Notes under the pieces: generated by a model
Database searches by the model: none
Told to the model about the DNA's origin: nothing
What the model saw: the letters and a program-made list of their open reading frames with translations, nothing else
Shown here: positions 13,297 through 39,578 of the stretch, in pieces
Layout: each line of letters begins with the position of its first letter
Numbering within the stretch: position 1 is the stretch's first letter
Made by a program: the position numbers and the translations under genes
Origin: Candidatus Peribacteraceae bacterium
Lineage (GTDB): Bacteria > Patescibacteriota > Gracilibacteria > Peribacterales > Peribacteraceae
Assembly (NCBI GenBank): GCA_041678625.1
Contig: JBAYNS010000001.1
Coordinates: 1 to 41,616, forward strand
Direction of reading: 5' to 3'
Length of the DNA stretch: 41,616 nucleotides

Positions 13297-13558
13297 GAAC
13301 TAGAAACTAGGAGTTAGGAAGTTAGGAACTAGGAGTTAGGAAGTTAGGAACTAGGAAGTTAGCAAAAATAGGAAATCGTTGCAGTAATACCTAAGGAACC
13401 TCTGAAAAATTACCAAAATGTCATCCTGAGGCCGTTCGAAGGATAGACATTTTGGCTTCTGTACATGGTTCGAGCGACCTCACCATGACAGAAGCCAGAG
13501 TTTTTCAGAGGTTCCCTAACTCCTAACTTCCTATCCTCTATCTCCTAACTTCCTAACC
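13284..13558. repeat. nested inverted repeat: 7-8-nt TAGGA-type tandem repeats (arms) around a ~120-nt three-way-junction palindrome
   Basis: The left arm (13284-13363) consists of TTAGGAAC/TAGGAGT/TAGGAAG units and the right arm (13516-13558) is their complement. The inner stem is GGAACCTCTGAAAAA (13395-13409) pairing with TTTTTCAGAGGTTCC (13501-15). Two internal hairpins are present: CCAAAATGTC..GACATTTTGG and GGCTTCTGT..ACAGAAGCC. Confidence 0.8.
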
Positions 13559-28772: not shown

Positions 28773-28847
28773 GGGTCAGTAGCTCAGTGGTAGAGCAGAG
28801 GCCTTTTAAGCCTTTGGCCGTGGGTTCGATCCCCACCTGACCCACCA
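28773..28847 (+). tRNA. tRNA-Lys(UUU), CCA encoded
   Basis: GGGTCAG/CTGACCC acceptor, D-arm GCTC-AGTGGTA-GAGC, anticodon loop CTTTTAA, T-arm GTGGG-TTCGATC-CCCAC. Length 75 nt. Confidence 0.92.
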
Positions 28848-28886
28848 TTCGTCGCCCCGCGTACGCGGGGCTCCTCATGGCAAGCC
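28848..28886 (+). repeat. GC-rich palindromic element (family member)
   Basis: TTCGTC-GCCCCGC-GTAC-GCGGGGC-TCCTCATGGCAAGCC, with a 7-bp stem at 28854-28871. Confidence 0.55.
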
Positions 28887-28908
28887 ATTTCTGCTACGTT
28901 CATATGCT

Positions 28909-29163
28909 ATGGCTTTTTTCACATATATTCTTGAGTTAGAAAATGGCTCCTATTATGTTGGGCACACGAGTGATCTGAAACGTCGTATCAAAGAACATCA
29001 AGAAGGTCGAGCATGTTCTCATACACGAAAATATCCCATAGTACGATTATGTTGGTATGAGAAACAACCCGATCGTTTTACTGCTGCCAAGCGAGAAAAA
29101 GAGATAAAAGGTTGGCGCAGAGAAAAGAAAGAAAAACTTTGGTTGGATGTGGGCTCGTCCTGA
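28909..29163 (+). CDS. stand-alone GIY-YIG nuclease family protein (UPF0213/YhbQ-like)
   Basis: Has FTYILELENGSYYVGHTSDLKRRIKEHQEG...AAKREKEIKGWRREKK, i.e. GIY..YVG, R and E in canonical spacing. Length 84 aa. Confidence 0.85.
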   Translation: MAFFTYILELENGSYYVGHTSDLKRRIKEHQEGRACSHTRKYPIVRLCWYEKQPDRFTAAKREKEIKGWRREKKEKLWLDVGSS

Positions 29164-29176
29164 GCATAACGAAGGA

Positions 29177-29199
29177 TTCGATCCCCACCTGACCCACCA
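29177..29199 (+). repeat. direct repeat: copy of the last 23 nt of tRNA-Lys
   Basis: Perfect 23/23 identity to 28825-28847. Confidence 0.9.
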
Positions 29200-29270
29200 A
29201 TCAGGAAAATGGTTTTAGTTTAAAAAGAAATGCGAAAGTTTTCTACGATCGAATATCGTTGCATTTTCTG

Positions 29271-33642: not shown

Positions 33643-33719
33643 ACACCTGTAGCTCAATTGGATAGAGCGTCAGCTTCCGGAGCTGAAGGTTGTGGGTTCG
33701 AGCCCCGCCAGGTGTACCA
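33643..33719 (+). tRNA. tRNA-Arg(CCG), CCA encoded
   Basis: ACACCTG/CAGGTGT acceptor, GCTC-AATTGGATA-GAGC D-arm, anticodon loop TTCCGGA, T-arm GTGGG-TTCGAGC-CCCGC. Length 77 nt. Confidence 0.88.
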
Positions 33720-33743
33720 TTCAATTGATTGGCGAAGGTGGAA

Positions 33744-33780
33744 GCTGAAGATACAGGTTCAATTCCTGTCGGGGGTACCA
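33744..33780 (+). pseudogene. tRNA 3' fragment (anticodon-stem 3' strand to CCA), Gly-like
   Basis: GCTGA-AGAT-ACAGG-TTCAATT-CCTGT-CGGGGGT-A-CCA. The T-arm is perfect, but no matching 5' anticodon-stem strand lies upstream. Confidence 0.6.
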
Positions 33781-33781
33781 T

Positions 33782-33816
33782 CCGGCTTCGTCCCGCGTCC
33801 GCGGGACTACGCCGTG
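33782..33816 (+). repeat. GC-rich palindromic element (family member)
   Basis: CCGGCTTCG-TCCCGC-GTCC-GCGGGA-CTACGCCGTG. The stem is at 33790-33807. Confidence 0.6.
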
Positions 33817-33897
33817 ATTATTACTTCACATGCCGCCGGATGCCACGGCGAAATTTGCGGCAAAGCGGAGAACAAAGCCGGGCATTCGACTCGATTT

Positions 33898-35545: not shown

Positions 35546-35581
35546 GTCAATAGAGCGGGATAGTGGAGTGTATTCGGAACT
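35546..35581. repeat. 36-nt direct repeat, copy B
   Basis: GTCAATAGAGCGGGATAGTGGAGTGTATTCGGAACT, with 1 mismatch to copy A. Confidence 0.85.
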
Positions 35582-35593
35582 GAGATGGAGTAT

Positions 35594-35837
35594 TACTGCG
35601 GAGCAATATGACGAAAACGAATGGAAGTCCCCGACCCGGACTTCAAGTACTTCTCAAATTGATTGCCTTCGTTTTATTGCGGAATCCACAAAACCATTCT
35701 ATATCCCATGGACGAAGATTCTTGGTCGCAATCACTGATCCTTCGTTATGCTCTTTGAGCCGCACGGATATATCAGAAGCATGGCCAACATATTGTTTAC
35801 CTTTCTGGTTGCGTAAGATGTATACGTAATGCCACAT
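35594..35837 (-). pseudogene. stand-alone GIY-YIG nuclease gene, apparently frameshifted near the C-terminus
   Basis: The ORF at 35643..35837 reads MWHYVYILRNQKGKQYVGHASDISVRLKEHNEG...RPW...KAINLRST*. Shifting frame at the AATTT run (about 35655) gives ...FEKYLKSGSGTSIRFRHIAPQ*, which matches the usual C-terminal (E/R)KYLKSGSG motif of this family. The corrected stop is at 35594-35596. Confidence 0.6.
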
Positions 35838-35956: not shown

Positions 35957-36030
35957 TGGAGCGGGATACGAGAATCGAACTCGCGTCTTAAGCTTGGGAA
36001 GCTTACATACTACCACTGTACTAATCCCGC
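35957..36030 (-). tRNA. tRNA-Gly(CCC), CCA encoded
   Basis: GCGGGAT/ATCCCGC acceptor, anticodon stem TAAGC/GCTTA, loop TTCCCAA, T-arm GCGAG-TTCGATT-CTCGT. Length 74 nt. Confidence 0.9.
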
Positions 36031-36266: not shown

Positions 36267-36330
36267 CTAGCCAACCCTCCTTCGCCCCGCGAATGCGGGG
36301 CTTCGGCAGGGCAGGCAGGGCTACATCCGC
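36267..36330 (-). pseudogene. 5' fragment of tRNA-Gly(GCC) (positions 1-11 and 15-23) split by a 44-nt palindromic element in the D-loop
   Basis: The minus-strand reading is GCGGATGTAGC-[CCTGCCTGCCCTGCCGAAGCCCCGCATTCGCGGGGCGAAGGAGG]-GTTGGCTAG. The element at 36276-36319 is a family member in inverted orientation. Confidence 0.7.
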
Positions 36331-37574: not shown

Positions 37575-37909
37575 TACATACTCTTTTTGTCATCATCGGT
37601 TTGGGAGCGGACAGTGCGTATGCAGGAGCTTTCGATGAATACTGTTCCATTTTGCACAGTGGTTGCGGGAGTGGCAGCAGCTTTTTAGAAGAACTCTTCA
37701 GCCGGTTGGGGAACTTCTTTGCCCCTCTTGTTGCCGGTGCAGCGGTGGCCGTCATCATCTACGGTGCAATCAGACTTATTACATCTGCGGGGAACGATCA
37801 GGGCAAAGAGGAGGCAAAGAAGATTATTACCACGGCGCTTACAGGGCTTATTCTTGCTCTTGCTGCGGAAGCAATCATTATCTATATCAACAATTTCATT
37901 TGGAGTTAA
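37571..37909 (+). CDS. T4SS pilin-like protein 3
   Basis: ATGA overlap with the previous gene, a signal peptide (...ADSAYA), and two TM helices flanking ITSAGNDQGKEEAKKII. Confidence 0.6.
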   Translation: MIHTLFVIIGLGADSAYAGAFDEYCSILHSGCGSGSSFLEELFSRLGNFFAPLVAGAAVAVIIYGAIRLITSAGNDQGKEEAKKIITTALTGLILALAAEAIIIYINNFIWS

Positions 37910-37982
37910 CCTTGATCGGACTTCTCCTCTGTGTTCTCCTGCGCTAGGCTGGCAATGTTTTTACGGTGTCATCTTATTCTTT

Positions 37983-39578
37983 ATGAACAAACGTCAGTAC
38001 ATCACGACGGCGATTGACTACCCCAATGCAGCTCCGCATATGGGGCACGTATTGGAAAAGGTTCTGGCGGATGTCTGCGCCCGTTGGATGCGTCTTAGCA
38101 GGAATCCATCTGATTTTCCCAAGGCCAGGAATGCAGTACGTTTCCAGATCGGGACCGATGAACACGGTGTAAAGATTGCGCGCAAAGCTCAAGAAGAAGG
38201 CGTAACGCCGCAACAGCTTGTGGATCGCAATGTGCCGCTCTTCCAAGATCTCTACGGGCGACTCGGCATTTCCTACGACGCCTTTGTGCGCACCACGGAT
38301 CGCAAGAATCACTGGCCGACGGTGGAAGCACTCTGGCGGAAGCTCGCAGAAGCGGGCAAGCTCGAGAAACGCAGCTACACTGGCCTCTACTGCAGCGGAT
38401 GCGAGCGATTCCTGACGAAGAAGGATCTGGAAGGCGGGCAGTGCGCCATCCACAAGGTTGCGCCTGAGGAAGTGACCGAAGAGAACTGGTTCTTCTCCCT
38501 GAGCAAAGATGCAGCGTGGCTCAAAAAACTCCTCACGCAAAAGGGGAAAGGAAAGTACGCCATGGTCCCGGATTTCCGCGCACCCGAAACACTCATGCTC
38601 ATTGAGCAGGGATTGGAAGATGTCTCATTTTCCCGTCCAAGAACGTCGCTGGATTGGGGTATTCCGGTTCCAGATGACCCCGATCACGTGATGTATGTGT
38701 GGTGTGATGCGCTTACCAATTACATTTCTGGCCTCGATTATTTCGGTCTCAGTGGAGCGAGCGAGGTGGCTCGCCATGAGCGAGCAGGCGACGTTAGTCG
38801 CCTGGGAGTCGAATGGTGGGATGATGCAGAAGTTACGCATGTCATTGGCAAGGACATCGCGCGTTTCCACGCACTCATCTGGCCGGCGATGCTCAAGGCT
38901 GCAGATGTGCGCACGCCCGATAGGCTCCTCATCCATGGGTTCCTGACAAACGAAGGAGAGAAAATGAGCAAGAGTTTGGGGAACGTGGTGAATCCCGAAG
39001 ATGTCCTCACGCGGTTTGGCGGTGACCCCGATCCGTTGCGTTTTTATTTAAGTCACGAGGTTCCCGTTGGGCGTGATGGCGACTTCTCTTGGGATCGTAT
39101 AGAGAAATTGTATGATTCTAAGCTCCGGAATGATTTGGGAAACCTGCTCAATCGTGTGCTTGTTCTTATGAATAAAGAAGGAGGAATACTGGTGAAAATC
39201 GAAAAGAATGAAGGACCGTGGTCAGGCTACGAGAAGTGTATGAACGCATTTGTGTACTCCAATGCATTGGAACATCTGACAGCGTTTGTGACGGAGGCGA
39301 ATCGTTACATTGATGAGACGCAGGTGTGGAAGCTGGAAGGGAAACGCAAACTTTTAGAGCTCTCTGAATTAGCTGAGCGCTTACGTCACATTGCTCTCAT
39401 GCTTCTCCCATTCATGCCTGGTACAGCGCAGAGGATCTCCAAGCAACTCAATGTTCCCTATGTAGACAGAATGCTTGATGTTGATTTTGTCATCACGGAC
39501 GAGATGAAGCAGTGGGGGAGCCAAAAGGAATGGAAGACCGTGGGCAAGCCGGAGATTCTGTTTAAGCCACTGGAGTAG
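37983..39578 (+). CDS. metG: methionyl-tRNA synthetase
   Basis: YITTAIDYPNAAPHMGHVLE (HIGH-type motif), a Cys knuckle CSGCERF...C, and KMSKSLGN. Internal ATG at 37983; the longer ORF (37719) overlaps the pilin gene. Confidence 0.92.
   Translation: MNKRQYITTAIDYPNAAPHMGHVLEKVLADVCARWMRLSRNPSDFPKARNAVRFQIGTDEHGVKIARKAQEEGVTPQQLVDRNVPLFQDLYGRLGISYDAFVRTTDRKNHWPTVEALWRKLAEAGKLEKRSYTGLYCSGCERFLTKKDLEGGQCAIHKVAPEEVTEENWFFSLSKDAAWLKKLLTQKGKGKYAMVPDFRAPETLMLIEQGLEDVSFSRPRTSLDWGIPVPDDPDHVMYVWCDALTNYISGLDYFGLSGASEVARHERAGDVSRLGVEWWDDAEVTHVIGKDIARFHALIWPAMLKAADVRTPDRLLIHGFLTNEGEKMSKSLGNVVNPEDVLTRFGGDPDPLRFYLSHEVPVGRDGDFSWDRIEKLYDSKLRNDLGNLLNRVLVLMNKEGGILVKIEKNEGPWSGYEKCMNAFVYSNALEHLTAFVTEANRYIDETQVWKLEGKRKLLELSELAERLRHIALMLLPFMPGTAQRISKQLNVPYVDRMLDVDFVITDEMKQWGSQKEWKTVGKPEILFKPLE

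Follow-up and report, generated by a model that had tools for sequence, protein, structure and literature searches.

The closest described relatives of the element reported here are the Ssn nucleases, single-domain GIY-YIG proteins of ∼94 amino acids whose founding member is SsnA of Neisseria meningitidis (CDD cd10448; Chenal et al. Nat Commun 2025, PMC11893778). The target of Ssn enzymes is an oriented hairpin repeat, known as NTS in Neisseria and, more generally, as the Ssn-related motif (SRM). They bind it solely as single-stranded DNA (ssDNA) and hydrolyze the strand a few nucleotides 5′ of the hairpin, leaving double-stranded DNA (dsDNA) and RNA uncut (PMC11893778). According to the same paper, they are the first site-specific nucleases that cut ssDNA only, and mutations of Y6, Y17, and E64 in SsnA abolish cleavage. 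The ssn genes are typically flanked by repeats on both sides, a layout that the authors describe as “identical to” that of an insertion sequence and liken to RAYT/REP (REP-associated tyrosine transposases and repetitive extragenic palindromes); a mobile origin is offered as a hypothesis, SsnA is reported to limit transformation, and domestication is the reading favored (PMC11893778). The word tRNA is absent from the text of that paper. We analyzed a 41,616-nt stretch of DNA (the window) from the metagenome-assembled genome of a Candidatus Peribacteraceae bacterium (Peregrinibacteria; contig JBAYNS010000001.1, positions 1–41,616), in which an Ssn-like gene flanked by two hairpins lies between two copies of the 3′ end of a tRNA-Lys gene. 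A preliminary description of this cassette had placed it in no described class of elements, a statement not borne out in view of the Ssn/SRM system published in 2025 with its insertion sequence-like layout (PMC11893778).

Anatomy of the tRNA-Lys unit

The tRNA-Lys(UUU) gene at 28773–28847 (plus strand), which would be the target gene, is intact and has an encoded CCA (ARAGORN; Rfam tRNA model, 77 bits). Its last 23 nt, running from the T-loop through CCA (TTCGATCCCCACCTGACCCACCA, 28825–28847), recur without a mismatch on the same strand at 29177–29199 and are followed there by the host flank ATCAGG. Local alignment of the tRNA tail with the downstream region gives a score of 48, versus a shuffle maximum of 23 (n = 2000), which upholds the perfect repeat reported initially. 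With the flanks included, 27 of 29 positions match (28822–28850 versus 29174–29202). The interval between the two copies is 329 nt long, and its sole same-strand open reading frame (ORF) of at least 30 amino acids, at 28909–29163, encodes an intact 84-residue single-domain GIY-YIG nuclease of the Ssn family (Pfam PF01541, E = 9e-17). The second repeat copy begins 13 nt past the stop codon of this gene, again as first described. Another listed ORF that touches the inter-repeat region (40 amino acids, 29078–29200, minus strand) overlaps the nuclease gene.

The 84-residue protein is 41% identical over 74 amino acids to the SsnA ortholog of N. gonorrhoeae (E = 3e-17; hhalign probability 97.9%). 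This ortholog (94 amino acids), taken from NZ_CP119140.1, one of two N. gonorrhoeae chromosomes filed as plasmids in PLSDB, has Y6, Y17, and E64 and is encoded amid 12 NTS copies within 1.4 kb. Its three residues align with Y6, Y16, and E63 of the window protein, so that the catalytic residues are the same and are offset by one position. R26 and H30 are conserved as well, and an alignment of 39 sequences shows no variation at Y16 and E63 and at least 90% conservation of Y6. The closest solved structures in a profile search are those of UPF0213 BH0048 (PDB code 1zg2, E = 3e-19) and EF2693 (PDB code 1ywl, E = 3e-16). Proteins of the UPF0213/YhbQ type (SLX1-related) have the size and single-domain build of the window protein, whereas BH0048 lacks the KGW-R-KK signature and the WxE motif common to SsnA and the window protein. 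To our knowledge, no association with hairpin repeats has been reported for UPF0213/YhbQ-type proteins. No informative NCBIfam family was found for the window protein.

Both ends of the cassette carry an SRM-like hairpin. The left one, found in a tandem-GA hairpin scan, occupies 28845–28886 on the minus strand and reads GGCTTG-CCATGAGGAG-CCCCGCGTACGCGGGG-CGACGAATGG; the hairpin proper, CCATGAGGAG-CCCCGCGTACGCGGGG-CGACGAATGG, spans 28845–28880, and its outer stem (CCAT/ATGG) borrows the CCA of tRNA-Lys. The GC palindrome GCCCCGCGTACGCGGGGC noted earlier does lie at 28854–28871 (z = −2.2 for the ssDNA fold of the left GC stem), inside this hairpin, and is a part of the left inverted terminal motif rather than the separate element it had been taken for. 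The right hairpin, CG-TCCTGAG-CATAA-CGAAGGA-TTC (29156–29179, plus strand), has a TCCT/AGGA stem with tandem G·A pairs, and the stop codon of the nuclease gene (29161–29163) falls within it.

Alignment by eye of the window cassette with its five closest relatives (species-representative genomes, loci L002–L006) reveals a common plan. On the left, a tRNA ending in CCA is followed by TTCGTC(G), a variable GC hairpin, CTCATGGCAAGCC, and the ORF; on the right, the ORF end TCGAGCTTGCCCTGA is followed by a variable stretch, CGACGAAGG, and the copy of the tRNA tail. Terminal inverted repeats like those of an insertion sequence bound the element: TTCGTCG..CTCATGGCAAGC on the left and GCTTGCCCTGAG..CGACGAA on the right are reverse complements of each other in L006, L002, and the window. 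On the strand with the tandem G·A pairs, each end has a hairpin of the form stem-GAG...CGA-stem. The left motif stands at the matching place in all five relatives and in at least 84 instances from metagenome contigs, and CCTGAG..CGAAGG motifs homologous to the right hairpin stand at the matching place in the five relatives, in L126, and in L133 and also flank the wider family. The conserved “SSLP*” C termini and spurious “MASH” N-terminal extensions in the protein alignment arise because both are DNA-level motifs.

Terminal inverted repeats above the shuffle maximum, with the consensus TGTCATCCYGAGCG..CGARGGATC, are present in ∼35 of 80 homologs, and ORF-less arrays of the terminal motif also occur in this wider family. 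Both the consensus and the Neisseria NTS (CGTCATTCCCGCG..GCGGGAATC) have a GTC(AT) 5′ flank, a palindrome, and a C after the palindrome, features that count for cutting or binding (PMC11893778). The two systems also agree in orientation. Neisseria ssnA has its nearest upstream NTS on the minus strand and its nearest downstream NTS on the plus strand, 3 nt past the stop; in the window, the left motif is on the minus strand and the right motif on the plus strand, overlapping the stop. The window motif is a variant, GTC-CCTGAG..CGAAGG-ATC, with tandem G·A pairs in place of the perfect GC palindrome. By their sequences, gene and flanking hairpins probably are an Ssn/SRM system, and by analogy with its homologs, for which alone this activity is established, the window enzyme may nick ssDNA guided by these hairpins. 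In contrast to the published account, the window unit is placed precisely at the 3′ end of a tRNA, with a tail copy on either side, and its host is a bacterium of the candidate phyla radiation (CPR) that has few motif copies rather than hundreds per genome.

The second copy of the tRNA tail extends beyond the perfect 23-mer. Within the last codons of the ORF, GTGGGCTCG (29149–29157, plus strand; GTGGGTTCG in the tRNA) matches the 5′ strand of the T-stem and the first T-loop bases of tRNA-Lys at 8 of 9 positions and is parted from the 23-mer by the 19-nt hairpin TCCTGAGCATAACGAAGGA (29158–29176), which includes the stop codon. Comparable split T-arm pieces are present in L002, L004, L106, L111, L133, and L159, and the T-loop variant in the split piece is that of the cognate tRNA in all 10 readable elements (TTCAA in 3, TTCGA type in 7). 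Because the second copy is both longer and split, the duplicated target probably measured ∼27–28 nt, with the right hairpin lying within its T-loop.

Extra ORF-less copies of the motif elsewhere in the genome are a further trait of Ssn/NTS systems that the window has in common. A canonical “GTCAT”-type Ssn-related hairpin doublet, intergenic and without an ORF, is found at 13419–13446 (plus strand, TGTCATCCTGAGGCCGTTCGAAGGATAG) and 13464–13491 (minus strand, TGTCATGGTGAGGTCGCTCGAACCATG) and resembles a REPIN. Another SRM-like copy, GGCTCGCCATGAGCGAG-CAGGCGACGTTAGTCGCCTG-GGAGTCGAATGG at 38768–38816, lies in frame within the ORF of methionyl-tRNA synthetase (MetRS, 37719–39578); it encodes ∼16 extra residues (ARHERAGDVSRLGVEW) between conserved MetRS motifs, and the Pfam MetRS domain is matched in two stretches. 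A GC hairpin with CGAAGG behind it (CCCCGCATTCGCGGGGCGAAGGAGGG; 36283–36310, minus strand), located ∼70 nt upstream of tRNA-Gly(GCC), looks like the cassette terminal motif without its 5′ half. The generic tandem-GA scan itself shows no enrichment in the window (14 matches versus 12 expected from shuffles), and its matches were judged individually by sequence; the one at 38941–38957 is ordinary MetRS coding sequence.

Readings at the RNA level were considered as well. Rfam places no RNA family on the terminal motifs of the window and six related loci at either gathering or permissive thresholds. A hammerhead-like reading of CUGAGGA..CGAAGG was dropped, with G at position 15.1 and no Rfam match, and a T-loop intron or a tRNA-like processing signal was set aside, as the upstream tRNA is complete and Ssn enzymes are inactive on RNA. 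A sub-threshold match to a type III hammerhead in a Nomurabacteria contig (L018, 7389–7442, minus strand; 32 bits versus a gathering threshold of 48.5, E = 0.004) lies ∼3 kb from the cassette there and appears unrelated.

Occurrence at tRNA genes of related bacteria

The five Peribacteria/Gracilibacteria relatives L002–L006 were picked by protein similarity alone, and in all of them the nuclease gene follows a same-strand tRNA (Pro-CGG twice, Leu-TAG, Arg-CCG, and Leu-CAA). Each carries a copy of the 3′ end of its own tRNA. In four of the five, this copy is perfect over 17–18 nt and stands directly after the right hairpin; in L003, it matches at 17 of 18 positions with an exact core of 14 nt. 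Including these five, eight loci other than the window hold an intact cassette of this subfamily (at Pro-CGG, Leu-CAA, Leu-TAG, and Arg-CCG), with a perfect 17–18-nt tail copy in seven and a 17/18 match in the eighth. Among all 80 homologs, a same-strand tRNA ends at most 200 nt upstream of the gene in 23, versus 0.47 expected from the local background. The preliminary description had portrayed a minimal unit, with the nuclease as its sole ORF, tied to the T-arm/acceptor end of tRNA genes; the wide recurrence of this architecture, the proximity of the genes to tRNAs, and the terminal repeats at other tRNAs all speak for that portrayal.

In the scan of metagenome contigs with the left-end motif, at least 44 of the instances adjoin the called 3′ end of a tRNA or tmRNA, representing at least 15 tRNA identities, tRNA-Sec, and tmRNA, and at least 12 further instances have a T-loop-like tail. 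Most left-motif instances lack an ORF, among the matches listed. The scan added intact cassettes with repeats at Pro-CGG (L126) and Leu-CAA (L133), a second copy of the L003 locus (L135), and a cassette at Leu-GAG that is cut off by the contig end (L099). It also revealed ORF-less mini-units of 65–96 nt (L106, L111 in tandem, L123, L139, and L159), which possess the same two ends and a 13–19-nt copy of the cognate tail; by comparison, 11 of ∼1660 permuted control trials gave a repeat of 13 nt or more.

Tail copies of 12–23 nt are found at Lys-UUU, Pro-CGG, Leu-CAA, Leu-TAG, Arg-CCG, Met, Leu-CAG, and Arg-ACG. They flank units at different sites, as the target-site duplications of an insertion sequence do; their length is greater and less constant than is usual for such duplications, and the right hairpin splits the second copy. 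Six tRNA identities (Lys-UUU, Pro-CGG, Leu-CAA, Leu-TAG, Arg-CCG, and Leu-GAG) occur within one close cassette subfamily. The Pro-CGG cassette L126 is 73–75% identical to Leu-CAA cassettes and 65–68% identical to other Pro-CGG cassettes; as judged from these sequences, cassette similarity does not follow tRNA identity.

The left-end motif adjoins tmRNA 3′ ends in L085, L114, L145, L154, and L160 and tRNA-Sec 3′ ends in L115, L119, and L132. An Ssn-type ORF lies downstream in L085, L114, L119, and L132.

Relatives without the cassette exist. Near glycosyltransferase orthologs (71–75% identity) in L204, L205, and L206, a tRNA-Lys(UUU) gene is found with no cassette behind it. L204 keeps the window order of glycosyltransferase, tRNA-Lys, and glutamine amidotransferase (GATase), with no more than 100 nt behind the tRNA; in L206, the CCA runs straight into another ORF, and the tRNA leader has ACGTACAATGC in common with the window. 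L205 is also without the second cassette, at tRNA-Gly(CCC). In the same strain, contig L202 (99.99% identical) is filled, and two independent assemblies (JGI and Logan) break within the 23-nt repeat: L001 (28825–30954) begins exactly at its first base, and L203 (25485–28843) stops 4 nt before CCA. These breaks could reflect either allelic branching between filled and empty sites or the behavior of the assembler. An empty allele would have ...CCCACCA next to ATCAGGAAAATGG. A search of metagenome contigs for the exact DNA pattern of tRNA tail plus right flank gave no match.

Truncated and tandem copies were found as well. L153 has a truncated cassette at tRNA-Lys(UUU). In L002 (3968–4660), two identical 330-nt cassettes stand in tandem after tRNA-Pro(CGG), each closed by an 18-nt tail copy, followed by a third tail copy and a partial left end (TTCGTCGGCCTGCGGGCCTCCTCATGGCAAGCCA). 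Either the regenerated target was entered repeatedly, or the tandem is an artifact of assembly.

A second locus in the window, at tRNA-Gly(CCC) (35957–36030, minus strand; ARAGORN and Rfam), had been described as having the same architecture. A tRNA and a GIY-YIG gene are indeed present; the gene is not intact and the repeat is not clear. The gene is a frameshifted pseudogene of another subfamily (FEKYLKSGSG type; 35593–35837, minus strand; Pfam GIY-YIG, E = 1e-16 for the repaired translation), whose first frame stops at 35645–35643 and whose C terminus is restored by a one-base frame shift. Its product is 34% identical to the protein of the tRNA-Lys locus and aligns to SsnA in the N-terminal 29 residues only. 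A degenerate, gapped copy of the T-arm/acceptor end of tRNA-Gly(CCC) lies at 35553–35581 (minus strand); its exact core, TATCCCGCTC (35553–35562), is 10 nt long, and the gapped 29-nt copy scores 23, a value matched by 12 of 2000 shuffles (p ∼0.006). An older insertion of a related kind of unit, since decayed, could account for the locus, which is weak evidence on its own.

The window contains a further rearranged tRNA locus. The tRNA-Arg(CCG) gene at 33643–33719 is intact, with the acceptor stem ACACCTG/CAGGTGT. Downstream of it, beyond a 19-nt spacer (TTCAATTGATTGGCGAAGG), lies a remnant of a different tRNA-Arg(CCG), namely its 3′ half (...ACAGGTTCAATTCCTGTCGGGGGTACCA, 33739–33780). This fragment matches the intact tRNA-Arg(CCG) of L206 (GCCCCCG...CGGGGGTACCA), and the same kind of trailer hairpin follows in both. 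From the sequence, a complete tRNA-Arg gene of foreign origin seems to have taken the place of the 5′ half of the ancestral gene at 33643–33819. The trailer hairpins belong to a second family, TCCGGCTTCGTC-(GC hairpin)-TACGCCGTGAT, which stands directly after different tRNAs in the lineage: at 33781–33819 in the window, after tRNA-Lys in L204, and after tRNA-Arg(CCG) in L206. In L204, the trailer hairpin is followed by a partial T-arm-like copy (GGTGGTTCGATCC).

Possible origins of the duplicated tRNA tail

In our view, the window cassette is probably an insertion sequence-like Ssn/SRM unit whose insertion at the tRNA-Lys 3′ end, by a transposition chemistry that we infer, duplicated the target. 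Such a unit would consist of a small GIY-YIG nuclease gene between two inverted copies of the hairpin that the nuclease recognizes. Its insertion would have duplicated the segment from the T-arm to CCA and would therefore have left an intact tRNA upstream and a displaced tail copy at the far end of the unit. The unit would move, or would have moved, as DNA via single-stranded intermediates, for example at replication forks. The nuclease would nick beside its terminal hairpins, host replication and repair would join the unit into the 3′ part of the tRNA gene, and a processing offset of ∼19–28 nt followed by fill-in would give the duplication. By an alternative route, Campbell-type integration of an excised circle through short homology would lead to the same product. 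The ORF-less hairpin doublets would be non-autonomous derivatives mobilized in trans. For the family as a whole, the best reading of the sequences is that it has inserted likewise at many tRNAs and at tmRNA, with gene-less derivatives.

Several points weigh against insertion by such a unit. We know of no transposition chemistry for a hydrolytic GIY-YIG enzyme, and because a hydrolytic enzyme forms no covalent intermediate, joining would have to fall to host functions, which is conjecture. A simple staggered-cut model does not predict that the right hairpin splits the second tRNA copy. Within one population, no pair of filled and empty alleles sharing the same flanks was detected. Each metagenome-assembled genome (MAG) fragment examined holds one intact cassette of the subfamily, with proteins that differ by 23–40%; near-identical copies at different sites were not seen in these fragments, and recent activity is not demonstrated. 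The assignment to Ssn/SRM is also open to objection. BH0048 is 41% identical to the window protein, the same as SsnA, and hairpin association, not sequence alone, must therefore separate Ssn from UPF0213. The published SRM search pattern, HGTCWYN(0-2)YYVSBRHN(0-5)WNVSBRGN(0-2)RNCYNB, has no match in the window and none near the ORF in any of the 80 loci. It misses the CCTGAG..CGAAGG type because it demands a continuous GC stem, and the motifs are therefore called an SRM variant by resemblance (GTC, palindrome, then TC). Nearest-neighbor DNA folding misses the right tandem-G·A hairpin (z ∼ −2) and gives it weak support.

The cassette could instead be a domesticated Ssn gene, vertically inherited and immobile, that is placed after tRNAs for expression or processing and has a host role such as the restriction of incoming ssDNA, as proposed for Neisseria; the tail copies would then be of local origin, through hairpin-provoked replication slippage or unequal recombination at SRM hairpins. 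Domestication with a transformation-limiting role is what the Ssn paper favors (PMC11893778), and the single intact cassette per MAG fragment, with proteins 60–77% identical, is typical of orthologs. Moreover, ORF-less SRM hairpins often follow immediately on tRNA and tmRNA genes where no repeat is present, and in L015, L038, and L060, the unit merely fills the spacer between two tRNA genes. We nevertheless regard this explanation as rather unlikely, as it fits poorly with the six tRNA identities in one close subfamily, with cassette similarity that does not track them, and with the lack of a cassette at tRNA-Lys in three relatives, in one of which the flanking genes are conserved. Further tRNAs are followed by mini-units, some in tandem, that have no ORF but share the boundaries and repeats, and slippage leaves unexplained why a whole gene lies between the copies each time.

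Insertion by an integrase classically leaves a duplicated tRNA 3′ end behind, and the tail repeats might be the attL and attR sites of a tyrosine or serine integrase acting in trans, with the cassette as a cis-mobilizable remnant or cargo of a reduced tRNA-targeting island. Islands of this type, prophages, and cis-mobilizable elements (CIMEs) share with the window an intact upstream tRNA, a displaced 3′-end copy at the far end, and tandem arrays; the order of intact tRNA, insert, 5′ half of the T-arm, hairpin, and tail from T-loop to CCA would fit Campbell-type integration of a circle via homology at 58–76, and the same window holds the separate footprint of tRNA replacement at tRNA-Arg(CCG). 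However, tRNA-targeting islands carry an integrase, whereas the inserts described here measure ∼330 nt with one nuclease gene or ∼65–100 nt with none. In line with the preliminary description, which had noted neither integrase nor transposase, no integrase, transposase, or recombinase domain was found within the repeats or in the ORFs tested at 22.9–34.6 kb (within ∼6 kb; glycosyltransferase, RuvB, L1, GATase, TatD, GT2 glycosyltransferase, serine hydrolase, and several without a Pfam match), an analysis that did not cover the 40-residue ORF at 29078–29200. The same minimal content of ∼330 nt recurs at many tRNAs, and therefore integrases specific for each would be needed; unlike islands, one Ssn/SRM family uses many tRNAs and tmRNA. 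Without exception, the repeats have their boundaries at the Ssn hairpins, and their length varies from 12 to 23 nt. These features make an integrase acting in trans improbable. Still more doubtful is the mechanism suggested in the preliminary description, in which a free-standing GIY-YIG homing endonuclease cuts the dsDNA of tRNA genes wherever an allele has no cassette, and double-strand-break repair then copies the cassette into that allele. GIY-YIG homing endonucleases exist, and SegB of phage T4 lies in a tRNA gene cluster and cleaves there (PMC2330249); SegB and I-TevI share with the window a GIY-YIG catalytic domain, a gene among tRNA genes, and selfish inheritance, and the cassette is absent in relatives, as homing would have it. 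Yet these enzymes have at least 200 residues, possess DNA-binding domains, and cut dsDNA, whereas the window protein is an 84-residue catalytic domain only, scores 19 bits against a cut-off of 56 with the NCBIfam group I intron endonuclease model, and has characterized relatives that cut ssDNA and leave dsDNA intact. Homing copies a gene between homologous flanks by gene conversion, without target duplication or terminal hairpins, and a spread to unrelated tRNAs that leaves a duplicate of the respective tail at each of them is not homing.

Ssn/SRM units as a possible class of mobile element

As an insertion sequence-like unit, the cassette would be comparable with REP/REPIN-RAYT systems and with IS200/IS605 elements (HUH Y1 enzymes, “peel and paste”). 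Shared features are one small gene flanked by inverted hairpin repeats, gene-less hairpin doublets that are scattered or arrayed, and the recognition of hairpins in ssDNA with a cut at a fixed offset, the last known for the Ssn homologs. The enzymes differ: RAYT and IS200/IS605 use an HUH tyrosine and a covalent 5′-phosphotyrosine, whereas the window enzyme is a hydrolytic GIY-YIG nuclease that cannot itself rejoin strands. In addition, IS200/IS605 elements insert beside a tetra- or pentanucleotide without target duplication, in contrast to the window unit with its duplication at a tRNA end.

The gene family, the hairpins, and the insertion sequence-like layout are already published (PMC11893778). 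In the literature searched on GIY-YIG proteins in connection with tRNA, direct repeats, REP, or insertion sequences, no tRNA-linked cassettes are described, and targeting of tRNA and tmRNA 3′ ends, target duplications, mini-units with the same boundaries, and occurrence in CPR bacteria are unreported for Ssn. To the hypothesis of a mobile origin, the loci contribute precise boundaries, target duplications, a multitude of independent targets, derivatives without the gene, copies in tandem or truncated, and a site in conserved synteny that lacks the cassette. They also define a set of substrates for biochemistry, namely two hairpins and one tRNA tail.

More tentatively, Ssn/SRM units might constitute an unrecognized class of autonomous DNA transposons whose sole enzyme is a hydrolytic, hairpin-guided GIY-YIG ssDNA nuclease and which insert at the T-arm/acceptor end of tRNA and tmRNA genes with a duplication of ∼17–28 bp. 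The ORF-less SRM doublets would then be their miniature inverted-repeat transposable elements (MITEs), and repeats of the dRS3/NTS type in Neisseria, Wolbachia, Rickettsia, and many others their debris. Should these units really transpose, a GIY-YIG hydrolase would be added to the few enzyme folds that power DNA transposition, and the origin of abundant bacterial hairpin repeats would become testable. Besides integrase-borne islands, a new type of occupant would then be added to those that settle at the 3′ ends of tRNAs and tmRNAs.

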